A DNA stretch of 64,000 bases from an uncultured virus (IMG/VR IMGVR_UViG_3300002097_000869) (IMGVR_UViG_3300002097_000869:1-64000), one strand, 5' to 3'; shown: positions 4,185-56,723, counted from the stretch's first letter. Translations and numbers: made by a program. The notes: generated from the letters alone by a model not told the origin.

Positions 4185-6698
4185 ATGCGCTGGAAAGAGG
4201 GTGGAATAAACTATGCCTCTGGTAGTTTTAGTATTCCCGGGAGTAGCGTTCGGGTGTGTGCCTATGATAATGGCACACAGGTGTGTGATAAAGGACACAA
4301 AATAACAACACCAGGACAGTGTTATTCTCAAAGCATAGGAACTATAATAAGTACAGACCCTACGTTTCAGCCTACTTACCCTATATGTTTGGTAGATTAT
4401 ATGGGTCTTATTAATAGTTCGGGTTTTATATTTAATAGACAGTATGGTATTTCTAGCACTTTTAATATAAGTACTTTAGATGTTGTTTTGTCTGCCTATA
4501 GCTTGGTGTTGTCTTCATTATATACAGAGAAAGAAGAGTATTTAGTTGTAAAAAGTATATATAAGTTGTTTGATTCTTTAGGTATTAGGGTTTGGTCAGA
4601 TAGTATAACAGACAGTTATTCAGCCTATTTATCTGATTATTATATGGTTGGTACTTTTAAGCTTTTATTGTTGAATAGTGGCTACATTCTCAGAGCTATA
4701 AATGCCTTTTCTGAGTTGTACCAGTATGATGTGTATGGTAGTGTTTCCTTACTTATGCCCTATTATTTTTTCCCTAAGATTACTAGGCAGGTAAATTTAG
4801 TAGTAATAGATGATATTACTGGTAGTTTTTCTGAGGTTGAGTCTTTATTTAAGTTGAGTGTAGAAAATTCTTCCGGCGGGGAAAATGAAAATCCTACAGA
4901 TATATGTGTAGGAGACTTAACAAAACCATCTCTAGAAAACATTCTACCTATACCAGGTTCTGTACTAAGACCAAATACTTCCTCTATATCATTTACTATA
5001 ATAGATGCTATAGGGGGTGTTGATAGGTCTTCATTATACATAACTATAAGTGGAAGTATAACAGCCCAAGCAGGTGGTAGTTCTATTATTGAGGCGGGTG
5101 TTATTCAAACTCCCCTGTATGCTTTTTTGGACGGGGATGAGAATAGTTATGAATTTACCTATAACCCACCCTTTTTGTGGGCTGATAATGAAACAGTTTC
5201 TATAGCAGCTCATGGTTCTGATAAACTGCCTTTAGACGCAGAAGATGAAGAATTTATATGTGGTGGTCTTTCTACGAATAGCTTTGATGAGGCTTGGTCT
5301 TTTAATGTTGCTGGTATAAAGGAACTTACTTGTTCTATAGTTGGGTTGGCGGATTCAGAACCTCCGTACATTGATTCTATATATCCTGTTCCTTTTTATG
5401 CTTATGCAAGATATGACGATGATATAACTTTTAACATAAAAGATGACCATGCCGGAGTTGATTTAAGTACTCTTTATGTCTATATAAATAATATTCCTGT
5501 TATTAGTGCTGGTGTGATTAATTCTGGTAATGTTTTTTTGGCCGGCGAAAAAAATTCATATCAATTTACATGGTCTAATACAGTAGGATTTATATATGGT
5601 GATAGAGTAGAAGTACATATAGTAGTTTCAGACTTATATGCTGTTTTACCAAATATGTTAGACACAACTTATTATTTTGATGTAGTTGATGATTCTTCTC
5701 TGCAGTTCTTAAATTTTTTGCCGGCGGTAGGAATAACACCTGACCTAGAAAATGTAAATATTGAAATAGATATTATAGATTCTCTTTACAATATTGATCA
5801 AAACAACTTATATATAAGTATGAACCAAGAAGTTGTAGATAGTACCAAGACAAATATACAAGGTAATAGAAATTTAACTACTACATATTCTGGTTTAACA
5901 GCAATATCAGGTACTTGGATACATGATGCAGAAGTACTAGGCAGTATAATTACAAATACAACAGTTTCTGGTTCTTATATTATAGGAGGTAGTATAGAAT
6001 ATGGAAGTTCCATTTCTGGTTTTATGGGCTCTTTTCCTGCTCCTTTCGACTTAACTCCTTCCGGTATGATTATTTCCGCTGATTTATATGAAGGAATTGT
6101 AGTTTCGGGGACACTGGAAACTGTTCTTGTTAGTGGCACTAACTGGGATGGCAAATATGAGAATTCAACTATTACTGATGTTAGTTTATCTGGGTTTTAT
6201 TGTAGCAGCGTTTCTTCTTATAATACGATAATAAGTGGTACTATTGGCTACCATTTAGAGTATCACCCAGTAAATGACTTTGCTTATGATAGACCAATAG
6301 ATATACTTATACATGCAGAAAATTTAAATTCCATTTCACCGGTTGTTCGTGAAAGGATTTATAGGTTGTTTTATGGTTATAATGTAAAGACATTTAATAC
6401 TAAGTTCAATAATAATGATAGAATAGTTGTTTATCTAGAAGCTTTAAATACATCAAATTTTTCGGCGGCGCTAAAAAATTCATATTACTTCAACACGAAA
6501 GAAAAAAGTATTTCTAATATATATGCTTCTATAAATATAGTAGAACCATGGTTAAATATAACAGCCGATATACAACCACAAGCACCCGTACACAGGTACG
6601 GAGAAACAATAACTGTAGTACTATACGCACAAGACGTACAAGGTAATGTATTGGGGCCGTATACCTTTTCATATACGATAGAAGATGCCCCAGAATAA
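4185..6698 (+). CDS. Putative virion protein with tandem Ig-like repeats and an SG-rich segment (837 aa)
   Basis: Three related units: ISFTIIDAIGGVDRSSLYITI, ITFNIKDDHAGVDLSTLYVYI, IEIDIIDSLYNIDQNNLYISM. Located in a structural-gene block. Confidence 0.55.
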   Translation: MRWKEGGINYASGSFSIPGSSVRVCAYDNGTQVCDKGHKITTPGQCYSQSIGTIISTDPTFQPTYPICLVDYMGLINSSGFIFNRQYGISSTFNISTLDVVLSAYSLVLSSLYTEKEEYLVVKSIYKLFDSLGIRVWSDSITDSYSAYLSDYYMVGTFKLLLLNSGYILRAINAFSELYQYDVYGSVSLLMPYYFFPKITRQVNLVVIDDITGSFSEVESLFKLSVENSSGGENENPTDICVGDLTKPSLENILPIPGSVLRPNTSSISFTIIDAIGGVDRSSLYITISGSITAQAGGSSIIEAGVIQTPLYAFLDGDENSYEFTYNPPFLWADNETVSIAAHGSDKLPLDAEDEEFICGGLSTNSFDEAWSFNVAGIKELTCSIVGLADSEPPYIDSIYPVPFYAYARYDDDITFNIKDDHAGVDLSTLYVYINNIPVISAGVINSGNVFLAGEKNSYQFTWSNTVGFIYGDRVEVHIVVSDLYAVLPNMLDTTYYFDVVDDSSLQFLNFLPAVGITPDLENVNIEIDIIDSLYNIDQNNLYISMNQEVVDSTKTNIQGNRNLTTTYSGLTAISGTWIHDAEVLGSIITNTTVSGSYIIGGSIEYGSSISGFMGSFPAPFDLTPSGMIISADLYEGIVVSGTLETVLVSGTNWDGKYENSTITDVSLSGFYCSSVSSYNTIISGTIGYHLEYHPVNDFAYDRPIDILIHAENLNSISPVVRERIYRLFYGYNVKTFNTKFNNNDRIVVYLEALNTSNFSAALKNSYYFNTKEKSISNIYASINIVEPWLNITADIQPQAPVHRYGETITVVLYAQDVQGNVLGPYTFSYTIEDAPE

Positions 6699-6716
6699 TA
6701 AGAGGAGGATGAATAT

Positions 6717-8288: not shown

Positions 8289-8296
8289 TATATTCT

Positions 8297-8326
8297 TTGA
8301 CTTTATTAGTAATGGGGCATTAAAAT
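8297..8326 (+). promoter_or_regulatory. Possible sigma70-type promoter for the nuclease gene
   Basis: TTGACT (8297-8302), 18-nt spacer, TAAAAT (8321-8326) in an AT-rich intergenic gap. Confidence 0.35.
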
Positions 8327-9569: not shown

Positions 9570-9772
9570 TTTATGTTTTTGTATGTGTGATTTAATGCTT
9601 AAACCTAAATTATTAACCCAGAGTTGCATTTTAATTTTCGGTCTTGTTTTTTTCTTTGGGGACTATATAGGACATTACCTCTATTGTAGTATTATTTTAA
9701 GGGTTTTTTCTTTCGCCGAAAAATTTTGTGGGCGATAAAAAATCAAAATTAACTTAGGATAGGAAAAAACAA

Positions 9773-16117: not shown

Positions 16118-19100
16118 TGCGAGTACTTCCAAATATAGTTAATATACTTAAAAATGCGAGTATTAGAAACTGTGTGTCGTGTATGCACGATAACAAGAAA
16201 GGCTACTCTGTTGTTTGGAATACCAACAATGATTTAAATGGTTATTCATCTGTGGGGGGTGTCGTTTCACATACTGTTTGGGACGGTGTTTATTTTGGCG
16301 TTTCTGTTTCTGGTTCTTGTTATATAGAAAGCCCAGATACTCTTGATATAAATGGTTCATACTATACACAGTTTAAAGCAGACTATAGGGTTGATTCTGG
16401 TAACAAAATAGTATCATCGTTATCTGGTAAGGTGCAGTTTAAGACTAATAGGGAACAGTATTGGTCAGAAGAAAAGTCTCTATATTTTGATGCTTATACA
16501 GATAATGCCTATCACGAGCATGTTGTTGATATGTCTATGCATGCTAAGTGGAATGGCACTATAACCGCTTTAAGGTTCTACCCGTTTATCGATGGTGTAA
16601 GTGGTTTAAAATTTCATTTACGTGAGTTAGGGGTAGATTCTAGTAATAGGTATTATTGTGATACAGGTAGTAGCGATGATGTTTGTGATAAGTATTTTGA
16701 GTACTCACACCCCTGTCCTTGGACAGGCAGTCCCGGGTACGCCTTAGCCAGTACTGTAACGGGCACACTAACTATATACGAAGGTGTGAATGATACCTTA
16801 TTGGTTGACATAGATGACTATGGATATCACTCTGTTAAAATAGGATCTGGGGTTAATAGGGAACTTAGTAGTATAGCTTGCGATATAGAGGAGAAGTTGA
16901 ACTTAATTGGTGTTGGTGGGTACGCATATGCTAGGTGTTATGTAGATGAAAGCAGGTTAATAGTAGAGTCTGATTGGCGGAATAGTTCTTCTAGGGTAGT
17001 AATAGGTGTTCCAGAAGAGGGCTCTGCTTGTGTCGTCCTAGGTTTTTTTGGTGCCACAGGCGCTCCTTTATATACTAGTTTTTATGGTACAGATAAGGCT
17101 AGTGGGTACGAGGCTCCTTCTGTCCTAGTCTCTCCGTCCTCTTTGTCTTATTTAAAAAGCGCGGATAGGTCTAGTGCCGAAAGTTCTTTTAGTATTACTG
17201 GAAATGACTATTCTGTTTATGGGGGGAATAAGGATTATAAAAATTTTTCGCGCGACACAAAAATAATCTTTAGAAATCAAACTATAATAGACTACTGTAA
17301 TCCTATAATAAGAACAGGAAAATTAAAGTTTTTAGGGTACAGTGGGGATAGGTATAACAATACAGAATTAAGAATATATAGAGAAAAAGTTGACGGTTCA
17401 ATTTCTTTAGTAGGAAGTGTTTCTGTTCCTAGCTCTGCTGATGAGCTTGATAGGGTTTTTGAACTTGATATAGACCTTGACGTAAAGAAGGGTGACTTGG
17501 TTTCTTTATATAGTGCGGGTTTGCATTTAGGGGCAGAGACAGAAAAAGGGGACTTTTCGTACTATCTTTATGATTATGACCTAGGAAGCCTTAACGAACA
17601 CGTGGAGTATTTATCTGGAGCAGGGGAGGCGGGGCTACCCTTATATGTCAGGGGGTCTAGAGTAGCCTCTGAGGCTGTTATAGACATCATTTTTGATGAG
17701 GTTTTACCTGTGGAGTCTCTGGTTGTGTCTGCGGAGCACGAAGGCGTGTCTGAAGATATAAACCTGTGCACCTTGAGGGCAGGTGGTAACAATGGGGGGC
17801 CTTATTTAACTGGCTATACTGGTTTAGACATAGAGGGCAACCAGGCCCCCACTTTAGTTAATATTGATTCTATAATAGACGGGGTTAAGCAGGACGTTAA
17901 TACTGTTTCCACTTATTGTTACCCAGGCTGGCTAGATTTAGGACTTCCTGCCCAGGAAGATTATTATTATACTCCTTTTAGTGTGGCCATAGATTTCATT
18001 AAGGGTATAGATGTATTTTTTGATGTTTATAAGATAAAGCTTTATTTTGTAGATAAGAAAAACATAAAGAGCTTTAGAATAGAGGTACCCTTTAGTTTTG
18101 ATGCTAATGATGAAAACAAAATATGGGGGATAGGGTTTCCTACTTATAATGAAGTCTATACAGAGCTTGGGTTGATGGATAGTGAATATATCTATCTCTA
18201 TAATAATCCAGCTATATTAGTTGCAAATGATTATCAGGTAGCTTACTCGCATCTTGATTATAGGTATTTAGAGTTAGTTTTGGAGCCATATAAAACGAAG
18301 GCGATTCGCTATAATGCTTCTTTAGAGGGGTATTTTGTAGAGGACCCCCTACAGTTAGACTACTCTGGTTTTCCTATAGCGCCAAGCCCAAAAATTCAAG
18401 AAATAGAAGTATATGCCAAGTCTATACCTGAGAATAGCATATCATCATATTTTAGTGTAGAGACCTCTAAAGATGGCACCATATATTTGGGGCATAATGA
18501 CATAGACACAGTGTCTTCAACACGGGCTTCTTATACTGTGGGTAGGCCAACAAGATATTTAAGATTAAATATAAAGGCGAAAACACCCCTTAAGGTTTTT
18601 GATATTTATGGTATCTTAAGTGAGGGTCTTGTTGAACTTAATTCTAACAATTCACATTGTTTGAGTTTAAACCCGCCCCTAGATTTACCTGGGTCTTCTG
18701 TAGAAAAGGTAACTGTAACCAATGACAGTAGTAGTGTGTCCGATTTTTATGTAGATATATTGGAAGATAGGTCTTCAAGAGAGCTTTGTGTATTATGGAA
18801 TAAGCTAGATTCAGATACTAGTGTCCAATATAGCGAGATTGGGCCGGGGGGTATTGTTCATCGTAGACAGCCTTTTTATCTTAGAGCATATAACTATGCT
18901 TATAGGTGTCCAGGATATTTTTTGGATAAGTATTTTTTACGTGATACTAACTCTTATCTTAGCCAGGATGGAGGGCTTTCTTGGTCTAATATTGGTACTA
19001 TTGTAACTGATGGCCAGAACTCTACTTATATAACAAATGAATACGAGTTGTATCATCAGTATAACACCATGTATGTGGCGATTCCTCTAGGGGATAGGTA

Positions 19101-21147: not shown

Positions 21148-24100
21148 TGGTAAGCCAAACAGGTTATAACATAGTAAAGGAAGGAGACTTATATAATTCA
21201 GAGATTGCTACGTATTTTGTCTCTGTTTCTGGCTTAAGGTTTCTCTATGTTAACCCATCAGAGGCGGTTTCGTTTGTAGTACCACAGGGCCGCGTATCCT
21301 CTTTAGACATAGTTTTTGGGGAATACTTTGATATAGACAATATAAAATGTTACCTTTCTCCAATAAACTTGGGGGATATTAGTATAAGCTATGGCATCGA
21401 GTCTCCTTTAGAAAGCAGTGCTACAATATCTTCGTCCGGTACTTTTATTTATGCAGATATAAAAAACGCCGTTGGTTTTTGTAGGATAACGTGCTCGGGT
21501 TCTGTTGACACCTCTGTTAGTAGCTTATTTGTTGAGGGTGTTCGTAACGAGTCTATGTATTTTGGTGTTCAGAATGCCCCTATCAGTATAACTAGTATAG
21601 GAAATTCCCCTATTGGGTATTATGGTTCTGCTTCTGAGATTTCTATATATAATAAAGATAAGGCGTCCTCAAAGGCCCTGGTAGCCGTTGCTCCTACAGG
21701 GACCTATATAGATGAGTATTTGTATTTGGGGACTACCTCTTCTGGTCAGTTCTATGGTATAAACCAGCTGGGTATAACACAGCCTTCTTTTGATAAAATA
21801 TTGACTACTCAGGATAGTTTCGTCTATTCCGACGAGTCAGGCCTTGTGAATTTGTGGGACATTGTTTCCACCTCCAGCTCGTATTTTACTGTAAATTCCG
21901 ACAGCCTGTCTTTTGTGGCTTCTTTTATTAATGCCGATATACATGTGGCCAGGCCAGCTCATGGGTATAATGAGTCTAGTGTCTTAGGTTTAGTATGTAA
22001 GGATACTTTTACTACAGATCAAAGTTTTGTTGCCTCATTAAAGATAAAATTTACTGATTCTTCTTTCGATTCTTATGATAAGTCTTGGGTTTATAAACCT
22101 AATAAATTTTTATTTGGTTTTACTAATAGCTTTCCTATTCAGGAGCCCTTGCTATCCTACTCGTCTTTAGACCAGGGGTCGTATTCTAGACAGGGAGGAA
22201 GTTTAGCCGCTGTTTGGGTTGGTGCTGACAATAAAGAGCAGGGTACCCTATATGTTGGCGCGGCTGCTAATGATGGGGATTTTTCTAGTAATAATATACT
22301 TAGTTCTTTTGATGAAGTAAGAACTGTTCATAATGGTCACAGTATACTCTCTGCCTATAGTTTGGAAAGTATTTCTGAGTTTGTTCTTTATGAAGAAAAT
22401 TATACAGACGGAACTTTGCAGGCTCCGTGGAGGACATTGAAGGTTTCGTATGATCACCTTAGTGGCAAGGCAGTGTTCTTGTTCGACGGGGTTATTGTTG
22501 GGGAATATGTTTTTAGTTCCGGGTCTTTTTTTGAGGGTAGTAGGTTTTTCTTGTCTTTCGTGGGGTTTGGGGGTGCAGAAGTAGCGGTGAAGGATTTTTT
22601 TGTAAGCGTGGATGAGTACTTAACCTTGTATTCAAACCAGTCCTCTGCTACTGCCTATGGTTCTAAAGATAGCACACAACTACCGTACAAACTTGTGGAT
22701 GGTTTTTATGACAATAGTAACTATAGCTCTGCTTGGGTTTCCTCTACGGTGCCCTCTCCTGCCAATTCTTTTTCTGTGTATTTTGGTGGTGTGTATAATG
22801 TAGAGGCTGTACGAATAAAGAGGGCCTCTGAAGGTAGCACCATTACTATTTCAGGCCTTTCTTCTTATACTCCTACGTCATCTGTAAAAACTTTGCAACT
22901 TAATTTTGACACAGGGGACCAGCGATACGTTTCTTTTAATAAGGAACCTTTTCTTATTGACGGGTGGGATATTGGTTATATGTATACAGTGTTCGGGGAA
23001 AGGTCTCCTGTTTTGGGGGCCTCATCTGTTACTGCTAATTTTTATCAGGTTAATAGCCTAAGTGGTAATACTGGGTGTTTAGTTATAGACGAAGTAGAGT
23101 TTTTTACTGTTTCCGGTATTAGGTCGCTTCCATCTAGTAGTTATATAGATGATAGTTATGGTTTTTTTTCCGGCCAAAAAAGAAATCTGTCTAAAACTTC
23201 TACCTCTCCAACTATGGTTATGGTAAGTAAAGATTTATACGATGTGTCTACTAATGAAATGTGCCATTTATTATTGGAGAATCGAGATTACGGGGGATCT
23301 TCTTTGGTATTTAACAATGACGACCCTTGGAAATATATAAATAGGACCTATGCAGAGTCTGTATTTAAGCGTGATGGAAGGGGCAGTGAGTGGGTGTTTT
23401 GTAGTGTAGAGGGCAATACAGCTTATATATGGAGACAGTTTGAGGAAGTTGTAGATTTAGGGGCCTTTTTTGTTAATTTTGTAAACTCTTCTAGTGATTA
23501 TGGGTTGGGGTTTTCTGGAAGGCCCGATAGTTGGAAACTACAGTTTTTAAGAATAGGAGGTGACCCGCTAACAGATAGTGACTGGATTAACATACCACCA
23601 GTTTCGACTTCGTATCACAGTGTCTCTGATTACAAAACCTATAGGGATAGGTTAGTTTCTAATAATGACGGAGAATACTATACTCTGTATTTGAACGCAT
23701 TTGATGGTCTTGGCACAAGTGTGTCCCTTCCTTCGGATTTATTGTGTCGTCTTAATAGGGATAATAAGCAGACGTATTTATATAGTACAAGCGCAGAATT
23801 TTCTGCTTACGTCGAGTTTGATAGTGAGATAAGAACACAAGGTATTAGATTGTATATATCATATGGTTACACAACGACCAGCAGGGCAGTAGTTGCTTCG
23901 GGTTATTCTATGACAGGGTTTGTGGTTTATAGTAGCATGGCTGTTGGTTCGTATACGTCCCCTATTTTTGATTTGGGTGGTAAACAAAATACGGAGAGGG
24001 TATTTGTTGATACTGTGCACAACGAAGGTAGCTCCTATATAATGTATAGGGCGGGGCCTGTTCCTCCAGAGTATAGTTATGATCCCAACTATGAGGAGTG

Positions 24101-26279: not shown

Positions 26280-28491
26280 TCGGCTATATGATACCTCATA
26301 CGTAGATGGCAGGGGTAACCAGGTGGTGTGGTCTAACGATACTAAGTTAGTGTCCTACTATAGCTGTGAGGGAGAGTCGTGGGATATTTATGGGGGTACC
26401 TCTTCAAGTTGGTACTTAGAAAATTATAGGCCTACCGATTTTTTCTATTCTACAGATTTGGCAGATGATAAGTGGTCATATTTTTCTTATAGAGGTACTA
26501 TTTCTGGGTCTGTTTCTAGTGGTTTGACTTTGGGTACTTATGGAAAAGAGGTTAGAGGAGGTGTGACTTCCTACGGAAAGTGGACTCTTTCAGGAATATT
26601 TGATATAAGACTTTACATTGATGAAAATTCTTATTATAATGAATATAGGAGTAATGTAGCTGTTGGTCTATCTGTTTCTAAGGATAGTTCTTATAAATAT
26701 AGGGTGTCTAAGTATTTTGATGGGTCTTCTATAGGAGCTATGTCTCATTATGTAGAGGGTAAAGAACTAAAATATTACTCTTGGTTCAACAACGGTTCTT
26801 TTGTTTCTACTGAGGCTGATTCAAGTGTATCTTGTTTGAGGATCGTTCGTGATGCCTCGGGGGTGTCCTCCTATGTAGATTACGGGGGCGGTTTCGTACA
26901 GGTCGGTAGCACGGTATCTGGGTTATGCTGGGAGAAGCCTTTGTATGTGGAGTTGGAGTTGGAGGCTGAGCAGGCTAATACAGTAGTGTGTAGGGTTGAG
27001 GGGGTGTCTATAAGCGGGTCCGTTATCCCCTCAACTATGTTTTCCTCAAAAATACGTGGGGTTACACAGTCTTTTCCTGGTGAGACTATTTTTGTTGTTG
27101 ATTCTTTGGGCTTATCTGTGGTGGACTTGTCAGACTCCTCCCTTTGGATGAGGTTTGATTTGGATAGCGGCGCTATGTTTAGAGACGTTGATTGTAAAAT
27201 TTCGGCGGGGGAAGGAAAAATTTATTATACTTCCACACAAGGACTTAATTGCATAGATTTTTCAAATGATACTTTTTATAGGTATATAAAAGGAAAGAAA
27301 CAAACTAGTAGTTATTGTATAGTAGAAAGAAATTTTGATACAATTTTGTACGATTCTATTAGTATGGATTTGCTTCCAGACAATCAGGTTAACGACGTAT
27401 TTTTTAGGAAGTTTAATGGTACAGACTATTTAGCGGTCACTACTGTTAGTGGTTTGGATATACTAGTAGATGATTTTTCAGTATATAGTAGTTTAAATAG
27501 AAATGAAAATATATCAAATGTTTTTATTTCCCCCGCTGGGAAATTATTGTGGTCTTCTTATAGCCAGGACTCCAATACAGGAAAACTCTATGCTTTAGAT
27601 GACATATCTGCTATACTTACTGGTGGTGGGGTGTTCAATTATTCAGTTTTTTATGATTCTGATACTACCCCTATTTCCCTATCTTCTGAGAAAATAAATT
27701 CTATATTCTGTTCTATTGAGGGGGAGATAGTTTTAGCAAATGAGTTTGGAATAGATTATATAAATAATAGTGGGTCAGTTTCTTTTGGCCCAATTAACTC
27801 TATTAATCCCTTAAGCAGCCCTTCTTTTGAATCGTTTTTAGGGGTTGATTGGCACTTGCTTTACTCTTCTGTTTTACCAAAGCCCCTGGTTTCCGTTTCT
27901 AGGTCTTCTTCTTGGAAAACTAATGGTAGTTATAGCTTAAAGCTTTCTTCTATTAGTGGCGGTTACTATGTTTCTAATTATAGTGGTGGTGTTTATCAAC
28001 AGGTAGATTTTTCATTAATAGATAAATTATATTTCGATATTAAGGTTGTGAATACTACTGGTATTACCTCTAATATAGGGGTGTTTGAGGTTCTTTGTGG
28101 TGGGTCTGTTTTATTGTCTGTTAATAGTATAGAAGGCTCCTTTATAAAGTATAATTATTCGATAGATTGTTCTTCTATTAATTCTGTAGGTCAGCTGGTA
28201 TTTAGACTTAGATATCTTACTTCTATTGCAGGTGTTGGGGAACTTTCTTATTATGTTGATAACGTAAGGGTATTTATAAAGGAACCAGACTATAATATAA
28301 TACCAACTAGAACACATGAGGTTTTATCTGCAACTTTATTTGAAGCTTTAGGCCAGAAAAAGATATATTTTTCTTGTAAAGATGGTTACGGAGCAATAGA
28401 TGTAGATACAAATACGCTAGACTACTACACATATATTAATGATTTTGTACAGGGTGGTATTATAAATAAAGCTGAGTATGCTATAGGATAA
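26272..28491 (+). CDS. Putative virion protein (739 aa), partial paralog of 29632-35805
   Basis: Shares RG.T..FP...VVD..GLSV....LWMRF...GL..IDF...YRY and YQ.VD...ID..Y.D with the 2057-aa protein. Confidence 0.55.
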   Translation: MTNRLYDTSYVDGRGNQVVWSNDTKLVSYYSCEGESWDIYGGTSSSWYLENYRPTDFFYSTDLADDKWSYFSYRGTISGSVSSGLTLGTYGKEVRGGVTSYGKWTLSGIFDIRLYIDENSYYNEYRSNVAVGLSVSKDSSYKYRVSKYFDGSSIGAMSHYVEGKELKYYSWFNNGSFVSTEADSSVSCLRIVRDASGVSSYVDYGGGFVQVGSTVSGLCWEKPLYVELELEAEQANTVVCRVEGVSISGSVIPSTMFSSKIRGVTQSFPGETIFVVDSLGLSVVDLSDSSLWMRFDLDSGAMFRDVDCKISAGEGKIYYTSTQGLNCIDFSNDTFYRYIKGKKQTSSYCIVERNFDTILYDSISMDLLPDNQVNDVFFRKFNGTDYLAVTTVSGLDILVDDFSVYSSLNRNENISNVFISPAGKLLWSSYSQDSNTGKLYALDDISAILTGGGVFNYSVFYDSDTTPISLSSEKINSIFCSIEGEIVLANEFGIDYINNSGSVSFGPINSINPLSSPSFESFLGVDWHLLYSSVLPKPLVSVSRSSSWKTNGSYSLKLSSISGGYYVSNYSGGVYQQVDFSLIDKLYFDIKVVNTTGITSNIGVFEVLCGGSVLLSVNSIEGSFIKYNYSIDCSSINSVGQLVFRLRYLTSIAGVGELSYYVDNVRVFIKEPDYNIIPTRTHEVLSATLFEALGQKKIYFSCKDGYGAIDVDTNTLDYYTYINDFVQGGIINKAEYAIG

Positions 28492-28493
28492 CA

Positions 28494-29624
28494 ATGTCTT
28501 ATACACTTACAGGAAACATAACAGGGATTTTAGGTATTACTAATATTGTTTCTAGTGATTTAACTTATATGTCCGATGGCGATAAGTATGTTAACGGGCC
28601 CACGATTTCTGTAGGAGAGACAGCGGAATTTATTATAGATTTGTATAATAGGTATTATACGTTGGGGGTGTATTATTATTATAGTGGTGGGGGTGTGGTT
28701 TCTATGTATGTTGAGGAGTCTTTTGGTTATTGGGTACAAGTTTTTCCGTCTGTTATTCTTGGTGGTTTATTTATTGGTCTTACGGGTGTTTATCCTAAAA
28801 GAGTAAAGGTTGTGCACTTGGCTTCTTTGAGTCTTGTTACTGCACATGAGTTACAAATATATAATAAAGATACTCTACTGGTTTTTGATTTTGATAAGGT
28901 AGCTTTAGATTCAAGTGGTGTTTTAGATACTATGGTTTCTGTATATAATAGTAGCACTGGTGTTAAAGATATAAATGTATTTGTTTCTGAGGGGAGCGGG
29001 GTAGAAAGTGTAGCCCTTTCTTATTCTGGGTCCGGCCCCTATTATTTTAGATATGAAAAGGGTTTAATACTACCCGGGGCTTTTTCTTGGGATAGTGGGA
29101 GACATATTAATACTGTGGTTAGTGGCACAAACCTTACTATTTCAGGGGTCTCTGTTAGTGGTACCTACTATAGCCCTGTTGTTGATTTGTATGGCTATAG
29201 TGGATACAGGGTTTTTTGGGATGAATTTTTACCAGACGGTGATTTTATAGGTTTTATAGATAACAGTGGAAGCGAGAGGTGTATTGGGGTTAGGTCTTCA
29301 TATATTGCTCCAGTAGAGGGTTGGTCTAGTGGGTCGTTGGCTTCTGAGTCAGACCCGTTTTGGAGCATTGCGGATGGGTCTCTAAATTTTTTGGCGGCGC
29401 CGAAAGAGATCATAATAGCAGATGATATAAATAGGTATTCCCAATTTTGTATAACAATTACAGGATCAATAACGAACAAACCATATATAAAAAAGGCAGG
29501 TTTTGAAACACCCATAACGATATCTGGTGTTCAACCAAGCACTTATGCAAATATATATATTCGTAATAATGAAGATACCTCTGGAAAAACAGCTGGTATC
29601 ATAACATGGTATACAGAACAATAG
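28494..29624 (+). CDS. Putative virion protein (376 aa), related to a module of 21147-26279
   Basis: GTYYSPVVDL vs GSYTSPIFDL; RYSQFCITI vs RYAQYKAVL. Confidence 0.5.
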   Translation: MSYTLTGNITGILGITNIVSSDLTYMSDGDKYVNGPTISVGETAEFIIDLYNRYYTLGVYYYYSGGGVVSMYVEESFGYWVQVFPSVILGGLFIGLTGVYPKRVKVVHLASLSLVTAHELQIYNKDTLLVFDFDKVALDSSGVLDTMVSVYNSSTGVKDINVFVSEGSGVESVALSYSGSGPYYFRYEKGLILPGAFSWDSGRHINTVVSGTNLTISGVSVSGTYYSPVVDLYGYSGYRVFWDEFLPDGDFIGFIDNSGSERCIGVRSSYIAPVEGWSSGSLASESDPFWSIADGSLNFLAAPKEIIIADDINRYSQFCITITGSITNKPYIKKAGFETPITISGVQPSTYANIYIRNNEDTSGKTAGIITWYTEQ

Positions 29625-41507: not shown

Positions 41508-42083
41508 ATGTCTAAACAGTCAACAATTTTTTCGGGCGCCGAAAAAAATATTACTGAACAAGATTGTATTGACATATTAAAAGAAAAAAACTATATAATA
41601 ATAAAGCTAGACGATTTAGACACAACACAGGTTAAAACAGCTAAGGAGCTAGTTTCTTTTTTCTATGCTACTTTATCTTTTTATAATAGGTCAAGATTAT
41701 TACATTATGGGAAGACAACAAAAAAAGATTTAAAGTTAGCTTCATCTTTTATAAAGATAAGACAAGAAGAAGCCGGTCTTAGTAAGGGTAGGGCTGTACA
41801 AGAATGTGCCATGATAGTAAGGTGTGTAATAGCAAATGAACCAAAGTTTTCTCTTTCTGAGCCGTTACATAATATGGAATGTTTTGGACAGGAAAATATG
41901 CGGTGGGTTACTGATAAAGCAATAAGCATAATAAACGGGGAGAATAAGAAGATAGAAGAGGAAAAATATAATAAGTATATAGAAGATCTTTATGGTGCGC
42001 AAGAAAAAATAGCCATTGAAAATATAGATAATAAACATGTAGAAAATCTTAAGGATATTTTAGGAGATTTAGAAAATGGGTAG
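41508..42083 (+). CDS. Hypothetical protein in the replication operon
   Basis: 191-aa ORF tightly packed between dnaN and recA. Confidence 0.6.
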   Translation: MSKQSTIFSGAEKNITEQDCIDILKEKNYIIIKLDDLDTTQVKTAKELVSFFYATLSFYNRSRLLHYGKTTKKDLKLASSFIKIRQEEAGLSKGRAVQECAMIVRCVIANEPKFSLSEPLHNMECFGQENMRWVTDKAISIINGENKKIEEEKYNKYIEDLYGAQEKIAIENIDNKHVENLKDILGDLENG

Positions 42084-43929: not shown

Positions 43930-45340
43930 TATTTCAGTAAATGTGCCTTCAGCCGATTGGTATTCAAAGCCAGCGGCTGAGAGAGCTTTGCTATCTTTAT
44001 GCTTACAAAATTATTCAACTTTTATTGATGTTTCCTCAAAACTTTTTCATGAGGATTTTCTGGACCCAGGAAACCGTGCTTTATTTATAACTATGTTATC
44101 TGTGCATTCTTTGGGTACAGAAGAGTTCGATTTGCCTACTGTTATTTCTTTTGCTGAGAATATGGGCGTTTTAGAAGATATAGGGGGCTATAAATATATA
44201 GACGCTCTTTTTAGGTCAGAGATTAGTCAGTCAAATTTAGAGGTGTATGTAAAACAAGTTCTAGATGCCTCTTTGTTATTTAAGCTGGAGAGGGTCTTAA
44301 GATTGAATGTTGAGTCTGTAAAAACTAGTGTTTCTGAAAATAAGACGGCTTCTGAGGTTATGTCGTCTGTGGAAAACCAGATTTTGAATCTTTCTTTGGA
44401 TACATTAAAGGTTGATGATGGACAAGATTTGGTAGCTGGTCTGGAGGAAAGGTTAAAAGAATTTGAATCAAACCCAGCCGCTGTTAGAGGTATAAGGTGT
44501 GGTTTCGAAGTACTGGACCGCACTATAAACGGGTTTAAGCCAGGGACTTTATCAATTTTGGCCGCGCGGCCAAAAACAGGAAAAAGTACATTGTTATTAA
44601 ATTGGGGTATACATATTTGTTTACATGAAAAACTTCCTGTATTATATTTAGATACAGAAATGAGTAAAGAAGAACAACAGACAAGAGCTTTATCAATCAT
44701 ATCAGGTGTTCCTGAACGTGTAATACTTAATGGGCTTTACATTAATGACGAGAATGTTATGAAGTCTGTATACTATGGTGTAGAAATAATGAATAAAATG
44801 AAATTTATCCATAAATACACACCAGGGTATAGAATAGAAGAACTTAAGGGCTTAATACGGAAGTATAAAGCTAAAAATAATATAGGTGTATTTATATATG
44901 ATTACATCAAAATGACAGATATGGAAGATAAGTTTAACGAAACCCAAACTCTTGGATATATAACAAGTGGTTTGAAGGACACGGCGGGTATATTGGGTAT
45001 AGCTGGAATATCTGCGGTGCAATTAAACCGTGGGGCTGAGGGGAAATCATTGGTTGGTTCCGGGGACATTGCCGATTCGGATAAAATTTTGAGATATTGT
45101 TCTACATTGATGGCTATGAGTAGAAAAACAAGGGCAGAAATAGATAAAGAGGGGGGTAGAAGTGGGACACATCGTTTACAAATTCTTGACAGCAGAGGCA
45201 GCAGAAGCTTATATAGTGGTATAGACTTGGAAGTTAATTTTCCCACATTGACAATAAAAGAAGCCAGAGCACAGTCTTCAGCTGCATTTTTGGAACAAAA
45301 ACAACTTGAGGAAGAAGTTACAAAATTAGGAGGAAGATAG
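43910..45340 (+). CDS. dnaB: Replicative DNA helicase
   Basis: AERALLSLCL N-terminal domain; GIRCGFEVLDRTINGF; AARPKTGKS Walker A; DTEMS; YDYIK; AVQLNR; IADSD. Confidence 0.92.
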   Translation: MRKLEDSISVNVPSADWYSKPAAERALLSLCLQNYSTFIDVSSKLFHEDFLDPGNRALFITMLSVHSLGTEEFDLPTVISFAENMGVLEDIGGYKYIDALFRSEISQSNLEVYVKQVLDASLLFKLERVLRLNVESVKTSVSENKTASEVMSSVENQILNLSLDTLKVDDGQDLVAGLEERLKEFESNPAAVRGIRCGFEVLDRTINGFKPGTLSILAARPKTGKSTLLLNWGIHICLHEKLPVLYLDTEMSKEEQQTRALSIISGVPERVILNGLYINDENVMKSVYYGVEIMNKMKFIHKYTPGYRIEELKGLIRKYKAKNNIGVFIYDYIKMTDMEDKFNETQTLGYITSGLKDTAGILGIAGISAVQLNRGAEGKSLVGSGDIADSDKILRYCSTLMAMSRKTRAEIDKEGGRSGTHRLQILDSRGSRSLYSGIDLEVNFPTLTIKEARAQSSAAFLEQKQLEEEVTKLGGR

Positions 45341-51958: not shown

Positions 51959-52008
51959 TCTTTTGGTTGTTGTTTTTTGTATACAATATTTTCATAAAAA
52001 GGAGATTT

Positions 52009-53298
52009 ATGGTGGAACAAAAGAAAGATAAAATAAAGATGCTAGTATACGCTGACTCTGTGACCGCATCTACAGGTTTTGGGGTCGTTATGAAAAATAT
52101 ATTGTTGCCTTTGCATAACACAGGCAAGTATGAAATAACCATGCTTGGCATAAATTACTGGGGAACCCCACACCAGGCCCCGTTTGAAATCTGGCCTGTG
52201 GGTGTGGAGTCCATGTTTAGTGGGGACAAGGATCCGTATGGACGGTTGTTTGTCCAAAGAAAAATAGCAGAATCTGAATTTGATATTTTATTTATGTTGC
52301 AAGATTCATTTATCCTTGAGTTTGTAAAGGATTTTCTTCCAAAGTTAAGGCAGAAGGGAAAAAAGTTTACTTCCGTTATATATTTTCCTATAGATGGAAT
52401 CCCTAAGAAAAGTTGGATTGAAGCTATGAATGTAGCTGACATTCCCGTCACGTATACTGAATTTGCGAAAAATGAGTGTATAAAGATTATTCCGTCTATG
52501 GAGAAAAGACTTAGAATAATTCCTCATGGTGCTAATATGGCAGATTTTTATCCATTATCTTATAGGGAAAACTATGAGTTTAAGAAGGCTTATTATAGAC
52601 ATTTGGCTGACCGATTTATAGTTTTAAACGTAAACCGCAATCAGCAGAGAAAAGACATATTTCGCACAATGCTTGCGTTTAGAGAATTTCATAGGAAGTA
52701 TCCTGATACACTTTTGAATCTGCACCTTGCGGTAAAGGATCAGGGTGGTGATATTCTGGCAGTAGCGGATTCTCTGGGTTTAGTGCCAAATGTCGATTTT
52801 ATTTTTCCGTATAATTTTTCTCCTTCTACTGGTTTTCCTGTAGACGTGCTAAATAGGATTTATAATTCTGCTGACGTAGTGATTAGCACATCTAAAGGAG
52901 AGGGCTGGGGGTTGGCTCAGGTAGAAGCGATGGCCTGCAAAACTTTAGTAATTTCCCCAAATAATACGGCTTGTACGGAAATAGTAGGTGAAGACAGGGG
53001 ATTATTAGTAAAAAGTGGTCATGATATTGACCATCTTGAAATTATGATGTATGACAACGAAGTTCTTCGTCCTGTGGTTAATGTCCAAGACTTAGTAGAT
53101 AAGTTAGAATTAGCTTATAATGATGAAGTATTAAGAATGAAGCTAGCAGAGAATGGATATAACTGGGTTAGAAACACACTTGTGTGGGAAAATAATATAG
53201 TTCCCTTGTGGGAGGTCATATTTGAAGAGGCTATGGAGATGAAGAATAAGGGGCATGTTGTTGAAAGTGATGGTTTCGGTGAGGTAGAGGAGGTTTAG
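52009..53298 (+). CDS. GT4-family (GT-B) glycosyltransferase
   Basis: AGGAG SD before ATG 52009. Motifs: STGFG, IPHG, NRNQQRKD, IYNSADV...GEGWGLAQVEAMAC. Confidence 0.85.
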   Translation: MVEQKKDKIKMLVYADSVTASTGFGVVMKNILLPLHNTGKYEITMLGINYWGTPHQAPFEIWPVGVESMFSGDKDPYGRLFVQRKIAESEFDILFMLQDSFILEFVKDFLPKLRQKGKKFTSVIYFPIDGIPKKSWIEAMNVADIPVTYTEFAKNECIKIIPSMEKRLRIIPHGANMADFYPLSYRENYEFKKAYYRHLADRFIVLNVNRNQQRKDIFRTMLAFREFHRKYPDTLLNLHLAVKDQGGDILAVADSLGLVPNVDFIFPYNFSPSTGFPVDVLNRIYNSADVVISTSKGEGWGLAQVEAMACKTLVISPNNTACTEIVGEDRGLLVKSGHDIDHLEIMMYDNEVLRPVVNVQDLVDKLELAYNDEVLRMKLAENGYNWVRNTLVWENNIVPLWEVIFEEAMEMKNKGHVVESDGFGEVEEV

Positions 53299-53300
53299 TT

Positions 53301-54422
53301 ATGCGAGGTATAAAGGTCATAGGCCCATATAATGATGCTTCTGGTTATGCCCAGGCATTTAGAGACAACGTTTTGTCTTTATATAAACTAGGTTTTGATA
53401 TTACTATACAACCTAGGAATTTTGAACCAAACCCCCCACCGGTTTCAAATAAAGAACACGCAGCTATATTGGATAAACTTGTTGGAAGAAATATTAAGTA
53501 TGATATAACCTTCCAACAGCTCACCCCAGACTTGTGGCGTGACCATGTGGAGCCTGACAAGTATAATATAGGTTTTATGGCTTGGGAGACTTCTTTGCTC
53601 CCGCCNAAATTTGTTCATTCTTGTTCTTCTGTACAAGAAATTTGGGTTCCCAGTGATTATAATGTAAGTGTACTAAGGTCTTGTGGGGTTGAAGTTCCAA
53701 TAACAAAAATACCACATAGTATAGACCCAAATTTGTTTAGTTCAATAGACTGTGGAGAGTATAGCCTAAAAGGTTTGTCAAATAACACATATAAGTTTTA
53801 TAGTATTTTTCAATGGATCGAACGAAAAAATCCTATGGGTCTTGTACGTTCATATTTTAATGCTTTTGATGACAGCGATGATGTTGTTCTTATATTAAAG
53901 ACGTATCGTACTGGTATGGGACGTGATAAAGATTTTATTAGAGAAAAGATAGTGGAAATCAAAAGGGATATGAACATAGGGGCATATCCTAGGGTAGTGC
54001 TTATTGGGGACATGCTTAGTAAAAATCAGGTGTTAGGATTACATAAGTATTGTGATAGTTATGTATGTTTGCACCGGGGTGAGGGGTTCGGCCTTCCTCT
54101 GTTCGAGGCCGGGCTAGTCGGTAACCCTGTAATCGGTACTGGTTATGGTGGGAACACAGAGTTCATGAAAGAAGACAACAGCTATTTAGTAGAGTATCAA
54201 ATGACGTATGTTTCTGGTATGAGTTCATTTAATCCTTGGTACTTAGGAAGCGGACAATGGGCAGAACCTAATTTGATTGACGCAAGTGAGAAAATGAATT
54301 ATGTATTTAATAATAGAATAGAAGCTAGAGAGACAGGAAGGAGACTTCAAGATTATATAGCTAGTAATTTTTCTACAGAAGCAGTTTCTAAGTTAATGTT
54401 TGATAGGTTATCAAAACTATAA
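53301..54422 (+). CDS. GT4-family glycosyltransferase
   Basis: SGYAQA; WET; WVPS; ERKN; HRGEGFGLPLFEA...PVIGTGYGGN.EF. Confidence 0.85.
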   Translation: MRGIKVIGPYNDASGYAQAFRDNVLSLYKLGFDITIQPRNFEPNPPPVSNKEHAAILDKLVGRNIKYDITFQQLTPDLWRDHVEPDKYNIGFMAWETSLLPXKFVHSCSSVQEIWVPSDYNVSVLRSCGVEVPITKIPHSIDPNLFSSIDCGEYSLKGLSNNTYKFYSIFQWIERKNPMGLVRSYFNAFDDSDDVVLILKTYRTGMGRDKDFIREKIVEIKRDMNIGAYPRVVLIGDMLSKNQVLGLHKYCDSYVCLHRGEGFGLPLFEAGLVGNPVIGTGYGGNTEFMKEDNSYLVEYQMTYVSGMSSFNPWYLGSGQWAEPNLIDASEKMNYVFNNRIEARETGRRLQDYIASNFSTEAVSKLMFDRLSKL

Positions 54423-54438
54423 CTTTTTGGGGGTTTTT

Positions 54439-55272
54439 ATGTTGCTGCGCGAAAAAATTATCTCATTGATTTACAGGGAAATTCTTGGTAGGGATGTAGA
54501 CGATATTGGTTTGGGTATATATATGAGGTCTAGCGTTCCTATAGAGGTTGTATATAGTGAGGTTTATAATTCCGATGAAGCAATGGAGTATAGGGATAGG
54601 ATGGAGGAAGAGAGGTTTTTAAAGCAGGCGAATATTAAGTTGCCATTAACCTTAGCAATGTTTGTTAAGGACGTAGAAGACAGTGTAGAAATGGCTATAA
54701 GAAGTGTTTTACCTATAGTTAGTGAGGTTGTTATTACAGATACTGGTTCCTCTGATAGAACTATAGAGGTGTGTAAGGACCTGGGGGCTCGTGTCTATAG
54801 TGTGGGGTTTTCTGACTTTGGTAGCATAAGAACGGTGTCTGGTCATTTAAGTAGGCAGCCCTGGGTTCTTGGTTTGGACGCCGACGAGGTTGTTCTTTCT
54901 GAAGACCTTCCAAAATTTAAGGATTTAATAGAGAATAGTAATGTAGATGCCTGGGGTTTGCCAAGAAAACGATGGGCCGATTTGGAAATGCTAGTACAGG
55001 TAGAGCCGGAGGCATACCCGGATTTTCAATATAGGCTATTTCGTAATGATTTAAATATTATTTATGTTAGACGAATACACGAAATAATTAAAGGAACTGA
55101 TAAAAAAGTGGAGGCGCTTGACGGTCCTTGTATACAGCACTTTCAAGATGTTTTTAAGTTCGGAGAAAAATTAAAATCAAGAAATTTACTTTATAAGAAT
55201 TTGTATGATAAAGATATTTGTGATGGTGTGGGGCACGAGGGTTTAGCCGTACAACCCATTGACGAGGTGTGA
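54439..55272 (+). CDS. GT2-family glycosyltransferase with a DUF4214-like N-terminal helical domain
   Basis: YREILGRDVD..G N-terminus; LAMFVKD, DTGSSDRT, LDADE, PDFQYRLF, IHE. Confidence 0.8.
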   Translation: MLLREKIISLIYREILGRDVDDIGLGIYMRSSVPIEVVYSEVYNSDEAMEYRDRMEEERFLKQANIKLPLTLAMFVKDVEDSVEMAIRSVLPIVSEVVITDTGSSDRTIEVCKDLGARVYSVGFSDFGSIRTVSGHLSRQPWVLGLDADEVVLSEDLPKFKDLIENSNVDAWGLPRKRWADLEMLVQVEPEAYPDFQYRLFRNDLNIIYVRRIHEIIKGTDKKVEALDGPCIQHFQDVFKFGEKLKSRNLLYKNLYDKDICDGVGHEGLAVQPIDEV

Positions 55273-56081
55273 TTTTGTATATTAGTGTTCCAATAATTCT
55301 ACGTAACATCGTAAGGCTTAATTACCCTGTGGAAATGGTAGTTGGTAGTGTTGCGGGCTTGGCTAATGAGGTTGTTTTGTGCGTCGACCCTTCCTCGGAG
55401 GACTCGACTGTTAAGTTGTGTGAGGAGATGTCTTTAAGGTCGAAGCTCGGTGGAATAAAGACAGATATACGTGTAGTATATAGTAAATGGGATTTAAAAA
55501 ACATAACTGATACAGGATATGAATTTGCTAAACAAACAAATATAGCAATAGATTACTGTATTGGGGACTGGGTGCTTCTTTTACAGGCCGATGAAGCAAT
55601 TCACGAACAAGATTTTGATAAGATACTTGACGCAATTGATTATGCAAACGATAATAATATAGATGGGTATGAAATGACACGTCTGTATTTTTATGGTAGT
55701 ATGGATGTCATACGAGACGATTGGACAGTTCCTATTATAAGATTATTTAAGAAGGGGTCTAGAAAATCGTGTGGGGACGCTATGAATACCTTAGGTAAGG
55801 GAAGGGTTGAAAGACTTAATGTTCCAATATATCATTATTCACGTATAGGGGATCCTGAAATTATATCTAAACGTATATTATCTTTGGATAAATTTTTTCA
55901 CCGCGCGGAAAAATTAAAGGACGAAAAAGAACTTAAACCATACTCATTTGACACATATAACTTTGATTGTCAACATAAAGACAATATAGACATAGGAAGA
56001 AAAAAAGTAGAACAATCATTTAGTACATTTACAGGCACACACCCAAAAATATTCGTTGGGTATACTGGGGAGGGTTTTTAG
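55269..56081 (+). CDS. GT2-family (GT-A) glycosyltransferase
   Basis: NYP...EVV..VD.SSEDST; QTNIA...C.GDWVLLLQADE..HE; RLFK; IYHY. Confidence 0.75.
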   Translation: MILYISVPIILRNIVRLNYPVEMVVGSVAGLANEVVLCVDPSSEDSTVKLCEEMSLRSKLGGIKTDIRVVYSKWDLKNITDTGYEFAKQTNIAIDYCIGDWVLLLQADEAIHEQDFDKILDAIDYANDNNIDGYEMTRLYFYGSMDVIRDDWTVPIIRLFKKGSRKSCGDAMNTLGKGRVERLNVPIYHYSRIGDPEIISKRILSLDKFFHRAEKLKDEKELKPYSFDTYNFDCQHKDNIDIGRKKVEQSFSTFTGTHPKIFVGYTGEGF

Positions 56082-56084
56082 TTC

Positions 56085-56723
56085 ATGATATTAGAAATGT
56101 CTTCCTGGGCCAAACTAAATATAAAAGAACCTGCCCCTTTATATGAAGTTCCAGGAATTAATTCTATAGAACCTATTGATGTATATAATTTTCGTTATTC
56201 TCGTCCGTATACTGAATTAAGTAAACCAGAACTAGAGGACCCACACAGGCAGTATTTGGATGTTTTGTGTAATTTGGACAGGGGAAGCTCTCTTTTAATT
56301 TTTGGCTCTGGTCACAGTTTTAATATGAACATCTTTTATGATTATGGGAGGTTTTCTAGGCTTGTAGCTGTAGATTTTTCCGCGGCGGCAAAAATAGGTC
56401 TTTACAAAGAAATAGAATTTTACGATAATAATATACTAGAAGGTGACTTACCTGTTGTTTGTGACTATGTTTTTTCAGCTCATACTATAGAGCATTTTTA
56501 TAAGAAAGAATTATTTGATATTGTTTTACCTAGATTGTTTAAGGCTGCTAGAAGGGGTGTAGTGATATTAGTACCGTACGGTACTAATTGGGCCGGGGAA
56601 CCTTACCATAAGTGTCAGTTTTATGAAAATGATGAATTTGCATCGTTGTTTGATAAATACAGGATTGTAAGAAAGGGTTCAGAAATTATATTTTTTAAAG
56701 GGGAAACTGACCATGGATTTTAG
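56085..56723 (+). CDS. Class I SAM-dependent methyltransferase (degenerate motif I)
   Basis: LLIFGSG; VAVDFS; DYVFSAHTIEHF; VILVP. Confidence 0.65.
   Translation: MILEMSSWAKLNIKEPAPLYEVPGINSIEPIDVYNFRYSRPYTELSKPELEDPHRQYLDVLCNLDRGSSLLIFGSGHSFNMNIFYDYGRFSRLVAVDFSAAAKIGLYKEIEFYDNNILEGDLPVVCDYVFSAHTIEHFYKKELFDIVLPRLFKAARRGVVILVPYGTNWAGEPYHKCQFYENDEFASLFDKYRIVRKGSEIIFFKGETDHGF

Follow-up and report, generated by a model that had tools for sequence, protein, structure and literature searches.

Several described systems come close to the element analysed here, a dispersed motif consisting of a T-run, a short G/C-rich core containing CpG and an A-run, which recurs through a 64,000-nt stretch of DNA from an uncultured virus (IMG/VR IMGVR_UViG_3300002097_000869, positions 1–64000; hereafter, the window). 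Pause sites that depend on NusG in Bacillus and Mycobacterium carry TTNTTT in the non-template strand, are free of hairpins and are common in leaders and between genes (PMC9963633), all of which recalls the motif. However, they work in one direction, need neither a GC block nor an A-run facing the T-run, and do not occur as dyad units inside open reading frames (ORFs); their consensus is that of Bacillus and Mycobacterium and may not be that of the phage host. Stoperators of Cluster A mycobacteriophages have a conserved asymmetric sequence of 13–14 bp, a known repressor and an orientation bias. They resemble the motif in that dispersed copies, found in gaps and within genes, act on elongating transcription (PMC9283540, PMC6550527), but the core of the phage motif is unconserved and compositionally symmetric. 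The PeSL cassettes of T4-type phages are repeated punctuation next to small or variable genes (PMC2839356, PMC4122927), as is the motif between small early genes of a relative. In a PeSL, an early promoter is joined to a stem-loop terminator; the motif lacks both a promoter consensus and a stable stem-loop. Intrinsic bidirectional terminators share with the motif the AT runs around a GC-rich centre and the position after stop codons, but in the motif the order is inverted on both strands, with the T-run first and the A-run last, and the GC centre is too short and not self-complementary. Archaeal RNA polymerase (RNAP) and Pol III also terminate at T-tracts. For Pol II, a T-tract in the non-template strand ends transcription independently of a hairpin (PMC7615648); these polymerases are non-bacterial, unlike the bacterial-type promoters and Shine-Dalgarno sites of the phage. 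In the literature searched, with subscription journals outside the coverage, we found no description of a T-run/GC-core/A-run motif.

The window makes up the initial 64 kb of a virus record of 133,010 bp, and all coordinates refer to the window unless stated otherwise. An IMG/VR contig of 145.5 kb, which overlaps positions 1–58670 at 99.96% identity, adds an upstream stretch of 86.9 kb (U), and PolA and TerL are identical on contigs of 247.6 and 258.5 kb. The window belongs to the genome of a huge siphophage, roughly 220–260 kb in size. Its background is CpG-poor (observed/expected 0.62) and G/T-skewed (G 15119 versus C 9489; T 21168 versus A 18223), as an earlier sequence-only reading of the stretch had described.

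The motif is real and is selected at synonymous sites. In the window, TTTTS6N0–5AAAA has 22 matches at 7 loci, compared with a mean of 0.18 in 100 dinucleotide shuffles, none of which reached 22, and the reversed order AAAA..TTTT has 0 matches (0.34 expected). The sequence-only reading had regarded the signal as one of DNA rather than protein and had named a codon-shuffled control, which bears it out: the 133-kb record contains 20 sites versus 5.76 ± 1.76 (maximum 11) in 200 shuffles with all proteins and codon usage preserved, and the reversed order is found 4 times versus 2.0. Under a laxer rule the record has 22 sites versus 7.7 ± 2.1. The excess in U is smaller (19 sites under a slightly laxer rule versus 12.4 ± 1.9, with 1 of 100 shuffles reaching 19); 9 of these 19 sites are intergenic, so that shuffling cannot remove them. 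The order in U is equally strict, 19 T..A versus 0 A..T. Among the 2.9 million viral contigs of IMG/VR, the strict form T7-S8-A7 is found in only five stretches, four of them from this phage. The start of the core falls in all three codon phases, and core codons are nearly all G/C-ending, compared with 31% G/C at third positions of the genome; the CpG-rich cores are thereby built from codons that are rare in this CpG-poor genome. A protein-level motif is ruled out by the three codon phases and by the loss of the motif in codon-preserving shuffles. Half sites are also in excess (T5+S6, 23; S6+A5, 28; about 8 expected for each). By our estimate, most of them belong to full T..A sites, which fits a signal working in both directions. 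Homopolymer runs exceed codon-shuffle expectation in general (T5+, 604 versus 524; A5+, 581 versus 470), and a T5 or A5 run always entails a Phe or Lys codon.

We defined a strict site as a T-run of at least four, a core of at least 75% GC with CpG and an A-run of at least four. All eight sites that the sequence-only reading had picked out as clear are present and fit this definition. The first, T7-GGCCGGCG-A7 (5533..5554), lies inside ORF 4185–6698 and encodes the peptide VFLAGEKNSYQF; the second, T5-CGGCGGCGCT-A6 (6458..6478), belongs to the same ORF and falls within the peptide repeat of the first. T5-CGCGCGACAC-A5 (17244..17263) and T8-CCGGCC-A6 (23162..23181) are located inside ORFs of 1676 and 1710 aa, respectively, and T6-CGGGCGCCG-A7 (41527..41548) occupies codons 7–14 of ORF 41508–42083. 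T4-GGCCGCGCGGCC-A5 (44556..44576) encodes the Walker A loop of DnaB (AARPKTGKS) and is partly forced by the protein. The last two are T6-CACCGCGCGG-A5 (55893..55913), inside a glycosyltransferase ORF, and T5-CCGCGGCGGC-A5 (56375..56394), inside ORF 56085–56723. Of the nine G/C runs with three CpG in the window, eight are preceded by T and followed by A. The notion that the proteins carrying the motif are unrelated has to be qualified, since the sites near 5540 and 6463 share a repeated peptide of one protein and the site near 44560 is the Walker A loop.

Eleven further cases had been listed as looser and proved to be heterogeneous. Five have a broken T-run or A-run: ttctt-CCGGCGGGG-AAAA at 4868..4885 (listed as 4873), the half site T6-GCCGGCGG at 5714..5727 (5720), which is devoid of an A-run, the case at 27203, a broken T-run followed by CCCCCGCTGGG and AAA at 27521..27543 (27530), and T6-GGCGGCGCCG-AAAG at 29387..29405 (29393). 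The 27-nt stretch 4864–4890, which contains the first of these, has a second, inverted match in the same long contigs. Cases 10730, 42696 and 49230 have a core and an A-run with the T-run absent, and in 54444 the core and A-run are preceded by a merely broken T-rich stretch. Case 9714 is an intergenic tandem double unit (T-rich, CGCCG, A5, T4, GGGCG, A-rich) at 9704..9742, about 30 nt before a start at 9773. Case 45763 is a real GC hairpin (GCGGC-GAAA-GCCGC, 45752–45789) in an intergenic region, the outer arm of which, CUCUU, pairs with AAGAG of the ribosome-binding site of the next gene, encoding primase; judging from this pairing, it may be a translational switch of the primase gene. Contigs of four sequencing runs covering 4001–24000 have no ends, joints or variants in any site, the populations being near-identical.

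The anatomy of the element was derived from 41 strict sites in U and the 133-kb record. Core length is 8–11 nt in 33 of the 41 (full range 6–13 nt), and T-runs and A-runs are both 4–8 nt long, with means of 5.4 and 5.9, respectively, so that A-runs are the longer ones on the coding strand. A is frequent at positions −1, −2 and −3 before the T-run (13, 11 and 10 of 18 sites), and the A-run is often followed by T. Next to the runs, left and right half sites prefer C (0.46/0.51), G (0.59/0.51) and C (0.56/0.54), and the same holds for G007, an 87-kb record from a relative. Core end pairs are complementary in 15, 14 and 11 of the 41 sites, versus 15.6, 15.0 and 16.7 by chance, and complementarity of the flanks outside the runs (0.15–0.41) is also about that of chance. 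As RNA, the sites have a median minimum free energy of −3.2 kcal/mol, and 8 of the 41 stay unfolded. The 200-nt windows around sites are less structured than 300 control windows (−35.2 versus −44.8 kcal/mol, p 7e-10), and pairs spanning the site centre are no more numerous than in controls. All-against-all blastn of ±200 nt detected no similarity between sites beyond the motif itself. The element is a compositional dyad, being neither a hairpin, nor a repeat family, nor a fixed word. The suggestion of hairpin priming or pausing sites in the earlier reading is thus not supported as far as hairpins are concerned, given the non-palindromic cores, unpaired flanks and weak RNA folding.

The earlier reading had also noticed a switch in synonymous codon composition behind the sites, and averaging confirms such a step. 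The frequency of A at third codon positions (A3) is 0.42, 0.44 and 0.40 in the three 50-nt bins downstream of sites and then 0.33, compared with 0.26 genome-wide and 0.22–0.28 in the 200 nt upstream. The frequency of G at third positions drops downstream from 0.20 to 0.09–0.12. Upstream, third-position T rises to 0.49–0.51 versus 0.42, and third-position C is down to 0.06–0.08. The same holds for 16 deep-internal sites, at least 150 nt from any ORF end: in the 150 nt downstream, A is 0.387 versus 0.288 and G 0.176 versus 0.248 in 423 control windows (standard deviation 0.06 and 0.05, respectively), and the upstream side is near background (A 0.307, T 0.344). The flanks are therefore AT-rich on both sides, with the effect clearly stronger downstream on the coding strand. 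The site at 5533..5554 is followed by an A-rich, G-poor zone of about 150 nt on the plus strand (5555..5704), and a zone of the same kind comes after the other sites, for example at 55914–56063 (A 0.45).

About 40 copies are present in the phage, between genes as well as within them. That the motif lies mostly inside genes is true of the window and not of the phage as a whole, since 9 of the 19 sites in U are within the 8% of that stretch that is non-coding. Many U sites follow closely after a stop codon, 20–90 nt before the next start, and across this phage and G007 many sites are 0–90 nt before the next start. Junction sites in U include those between TerL and portal, between M24 peptidase and protease, between protease and the next gene, and after two LamG structural genes. 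Some sites are upstream of a sigma70-like promoter (U 40284–40418), and one is within a 5′ leader downstream of such a promoter (U 6280–6452). In the 133-kb record, 20 sites are located in the 102-kb plus-strand block and 2 in the 31-kb minus-strand block.

Relatives were collected as contigs with PolA and TerL homologues. L015, with a PolA 47% identical to that of this phage, has T7-CGGCCGCC-A7 in the epimerase gene upstream of PolA. This phage has a site in the same gene, 29 codons from that of L015, and both were made by substitutions, with no gap in the alignment. Across 46 TerL loci of relatives, T..A is found 29 times and A..T 6 times. In G007, the TerL of which is 57% identical, there are 26 T..A versus 2 A..T sites, and 17 of the 26 are non-coding (16% of the record is non-coding). 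The uncoupled gaps between its small early genes read stop, T-run, core (often CAGCCGGCG-like), A-run, Shine-Dalgarno site and ATG, with 0–30 nt from the A-run to the start. G007 and this phage have sites at three shared junctions (between TerL and portal, after LamG-1 and after LamG-2) with unrelated cores, and the remaining G007 sites are not common to this phage. The core at the TerL–portal junction is GGCGCGCG in this phage versus CCCCGGCGGT in relative L036. Homing-endonuclease genes adjoin two of the junction sites in G007. The region 35–45 kb of G007 (reverse-complement coordinates), located between gene blocks, has 51–53% GC, compared with about 35% in the rest of the record, and contains no motif sites. 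The L035, L037 and L038 records, 84 kb in all, have no motif sites. In a TerL tree of 11 rows picked from 49 loci, the topology is (L036, (this phage, (L035, (L037, L038)))), with 92/93 support for joining this phage to the motif-free clade. Ancestral presence followed by loss in one subclade would be the simplest reading of this distribution. The element is kept by selection where it is present and is nevertheless dispensable.

Outside the viral contigs, the strict motif has at least 120 scattered matches in species genomes, which do not point to a host. The multi-copy cases there represent a different, truly palindromic repeat family. Latescibacterota and one Proteobacteria metagenome-assembled genome (MAG) have conserved multi-hairpin repeats with the centre T7-GGGCGCGC-A7 or T9-GCGCGCGC-A9 and paired flanks (loci L086, L098, L108, L111, L118, L124, L139, L149, L158, L160–L164; L097, L131, L134, L151, L154, L156). 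In the Proteobacteria MAG, the repeat is often found at contig ends. With its paired flanks and conserved sequence, this repeat is distinct from the phage motif.

Judged by the features that define each class, the element is not an intrinsic terminator, a stoperator, a PeSL, a REP/MITE-like repeat or an N4-type promoter. A canonical terminator is rejected because, on either strand, the T-run precedes the core, A..T is absent in the window and there is no stem-loop. For the stoperator/operator family, the test for a shared recognition sequence failed, with no half-site base above 0.59 and with differing cores at orthologous positions. A PeSL cassette, in which promoter and stem-loop form a repeat of about 100 bp, does not fit the dissimilar flanks, the separate promoters and the lack of a stable stem-loop. 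Palindromic repeats of the REP, BIME or MITE kind are rejected by the lack of shared sequence beyond the motif, by unpaired arms and by the origin of genic sites through substitution, and repeats or mobile elements in general by the lack of shared flanks and by the origin of sites inside genes through substitution rather than insertion. Hairpins and cruciforms of short or long range are ruled out by the core, flank and RNA-folding tests. The motif is also not a promoter, since sigma70-type promoters are separate from it and the spacing from T-run to A-run is far too short, nor a hairpin promoter of the N4 type read by a virion RNAP, since there is no hairpin and the 3587-aa ORF of the phage is a tape measure protein. 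Scanning with simple promoter and terminator consensus sequences gave no useful information. Of the known classes, the element matches only the NusG pause site, in sequence.

Tentatively, we favour the view that the element is an orientation-independent pause or attenuation signal read by RNAP and is strongest against antisense transcripts; both the polymerase as reader and pausing or attenuation as effect are what we infer. Transcription of the phage is by a bacterial (host) RNAP, as follows from the sigma70-type promoters in its intergenic regions and from the lack of a virion RNAP. Polymerase would be the simplest reader because the signal is defined by composition and order rather than sequence, is two-sided and hairpin-free, favours junctions and is polar along genes. 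A composition that is conserved while the sequence varies would also fit a polymerase sensing physical properties better than a sequence-specific protein. In the NusG pause, TTNTTT occupies −11 to −6 of the non-template strand and, together with NusG, makes bacterial RNAP pause 5 nt further on, and the NusG contacts are described as conserved (available part of PMC9963633). In the element, whichever way it is transcribed, a T-run provides TTNTTT on the non-template strand; the T-run is at least five in 28 of 41 sites and the A-run in 37 of 41, which is a match in sequence only. T-rich antisense strands are reported to pause a Firmicute RNAP (bioRxiv 10.64898/2026.05.06.723315, in part), and terminators in and just after ORFs are suppressed by ribosomes, as far as the accessible text of PMC4824070 goes.

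In this proposal, 4–8 T, a G/C-rich block of 8–11 nt with CpG and 4–8 A would form a lineage-specific, composition-defined punctuation mark, set in an AT-rich zone of about 200 nt with little RNA structure, in which T is abundant ahead of the core and A behind it. The host RNAP, transcribing from either direction, would meet a T-run and then a GC clamp on the non-template strand, and the geometry of NusG-type pausing would place the pause inside the GC core. Between genes, the signal would punctuate the long operons of co-directional genes. Inside genes, sense transcription would pass the signal with the help of a coupled ribosome, and untranslated antisense transcripts would be stopped. The side facing antisense transcription is predicted to be the stronger one, given that on the coding strand the A-run exceeds the T-run in length and the A-rich flank is the more pronounced.

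Several observations weigh against a polymerase signal of this kind. Nearly all sites carry both runs, and a purely antisense-directed signal needs no T-run on the sense side. Both half sites share the weak preference for a T-run followed by C-G-C, which would also fit a dimeric DNA-binding protein. The convergent junction of the two gene blocks (contig 102226–102346), where a bidirectional stop would be most expected, is without a motif, and short gaps such as that between TerL and portal have the motif and no visible promoter, so that a strong terminator there would starve the downstream late genes. L035, L037 and L038 keep the same gene order and compact junctions without the motif, so that the signal is dispensable for these genes. 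Finally, at four orthologous positions of L015 at which the motif is absent, the downstream A3 is 0.41, 0.41, 0.50 and 0.28, and part of the A-rich zone may, from these four comparisons only, be independent of the motif.

The element could instead be a dyad-symmetric site in duplex DNA, at which a lineage-specific phage or host protein would read the shape of two opposed A-tracts flanking the GC block; we consider this unlikely, though credible. The protein could work like a stoperator, as a roadblock or silencer, or be an architectural protein that organises the genome. The need for both runs, the weak C-G-C preference shared by the left and right half sites here and in G007, and the lack of base-pair covariation are all consistent with it, and the presence of the motif in this phage, G007 and L015 versus its absence from L035, L037 and L038 suggests a reader capable of being gained or lost. 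Stoperators provide a precedent, being dispersed operator-like sites in short gaps and at gene ends of phages (available parts of PMC9283540 and PMC6550527). However, a core of 6–13 nt between runs of 4–10, differing in sequence at orthologous junctions, is a poor target for a sequence-specific dimer, and a symmetric site does not explain the polar flanks and run lengths along genes. No candidate reader gene or immunity repressor was noticed in annotation scans (Pfam, PHROG) of 220 kb, which included no search aimed at one. The binding or bending site proposed in the earlier reading therefore keeps a place among the alternatives, with the variable sequence and length of the core as its poor fit.

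An intercistronic element acting at the level of RNA in polycistronic mRNAs is likewise an unlikely, if arguable, explanation. It would be an entry or cleavage site of the RNase E/Y type, or an insulating, ribosome-accessible leader before the next ribosome-binding site. The layout of the early gaps of G007, from the stop codon to the Shine-Dalgarno site and start, is what such an element would look like. The motif is also 20–45 nt before several starts and once in a 5′ leader, and the surrounding 200 nt are significantly less structured than controls. The AAA before the T-run points the same way, its junction with the T-run resembling what we take to be the preference of RNase E, R-N↓W-U-U. 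On the other hand, about half of the sites of this phage are deep inside ORFs, far from starts, some sites upstream of a promoter are outside the transcript of the downstream gene, and, with hairpins excluded, it is not evident what an RNA element would gain from the symmetry of the unit.

We regard as doubtful a role in DNA transactions, in which the GC block would be a clamp within an easily melted zone for replication priming or R-loop start, site-specific nicking, or preferred Holliday-junction resolution or recombination. Such a site could also be a boundary for module exchange, as in the PeSL case, in which repeated regulatory cassettes can mediate shuffling (PMC2839356 and PMC4122927, in their available parts). 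The AT-rich flanks extend over 100–150 bp, with T-rich template strands diverging from the core, and the phage encodes RecA, a Rad52-like protein, RuvC, RuvB, an endonuclease I domain and an Hjc-like nuclease, together with DnaB, a primase of the DnaG type and over 20 homing endonucleases. In G007, homing-endonuclease genes adjoin two of the junction sites. The junction of T-run and core, TTT↓S, presumably matches the cleavage preference of RuvC on both strands. However, similarity between sites is limited to the motif and is too short for homologous exchange, sites within genes arose by substitution, not insertion, and the top-strand skew, T-rich and then A-rich, is opposite to the mutational skew of origins.

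An absence of function is quite improbable. Local composition or mutation, for example polymerase slippage producing runs next to GC islands, would account for the general excess of homopolymer runs and for the A-rich zones that partly persist at the motif-lacking positions of L015. Such a by-product does not explain the strict T..A order in the window, U, G007 and the 46 TerL loci, the recruitment of rare codons for CpG-rich cores, the retention of sites at three orthologous junctions at 57% TerL identity or the near restriction of T7-S8-A7 to this phage. A packaging signal, a further suggestion of the sequence-only reading, is unlikely for about 40 dispersed sites, and no test gave a result in its favour.

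The phage itself was found in groundwater and soil metagenomes only (11 runs, DNA contigs). Isolated phages include no near match, with only distant matches to its DnaB, and no PolA relatives were found in species genomes. Every large ORF of the window is on the plus strand. Genes for tail and structural proteins (1–40 kb) are followed by those for RecA, DnaB, primase, SSB, homing endonucleases, DnaJ, RuvC, glycosyltransferases, TnpB and sugar-modifying enzymes. In the 133-kb record, the plus-strand block extends to about 102 kb, after which a minus-strand block encodes a sigma-70-family protein, RuvB, a helicase, SSB and COOH-NH2 ligases. U encodes a clamp loader, TerL, portal, the major head protein, many homing endonucleases and the tape measure protein of 3587 aa (U 59335–70098, corresponding to L029), the size of which implies an exceptionally long tail. 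Intergenic regions contain promoters of the TTGACA-17-TATAAT type, Shine-Dalgarno sites and a few canonical hairpin-plus-T terminators.

At 62073–63573, a HEARO RNA (Rfam RF02033, 113.9 bits) runs into a 472-aa ORF with RRXRR and HNH domains, together forming what we take to be an IscB-type OMEGA element inside the phage. A second RRXRR+HNH ORF of 467 aa is present at 77823–79289 of the G000 contig (L004 13823–15289), and the spacer upstream of it visibly resembles that of the first copy (…cttactaggga…aaaggagtcgttaatcg TTG). A TnpB-like ORF (57405–58824; OrfB_IS605 and Cas12f-like TNB domain) is followed by a 286-nt non-coding stretch that could hold a guide RNA. The more than 20 free-standing homing-endonuclease genes, for example those at 47675–48511 and 51212–51958, are numerous in U and in 64–102 kb of G000. 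They include GIY-YIG+NUMOD3 and HNH types and a large CapR/DUF4379 zinc-ribbon family that matches HNH/homing endonucleases of PHROG. Two genes of the CapR family have a motif site near their 3′ end, directly after the C-terminal WESDF peptide. A 388-aa ORF of the structural block (8403–9569) has a C-terminal phage endonuclease I (junction-resolving) domain. The sugar-modification cluster spans 51967–64000 and continues to about 70.8 kb of the contig, comprising four glycosyltransferases, a DegT aminotransferase, a B12 radical-SAM enzyme, methyltransferases, a PglD-like domain and two epimerases. At 12806, contigs of all four runs compared have G>T and lack 14 bases at 12807; this difference (12806–12820), at the end of ORF 10536–12824, is a variant or an assembly difference in the window record.

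If the element is read by RNAP or by a dedicated protein, it would be a compact, portable signal that can be written into coding sequence with protein function unchanged, and hundreds of kilobases of phage genes would bear, in their synonymous sites, a second layer of regulation. It would, moreover, provide a handle, available from sequence alone, for mapping transcription units in uncultured huge phages, and its on/off distribution in syntenic relatives is a natural experiment for finding the reader. A bolder proposition, to which we give a low probability, is that a clade of huge groundwater phages uses a hairpin-free, orientation-independent, composition-defined 'stop or slow' code for RNAP, chiefly policing antisense transcription. 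If true, this code would span nearly 200 kb of co-directional genes, at junctions and, by way of codon choice, in ORFs, and would represent a new class of transcription punctuation in bacterial viruses, gained or lost between sister lineages.

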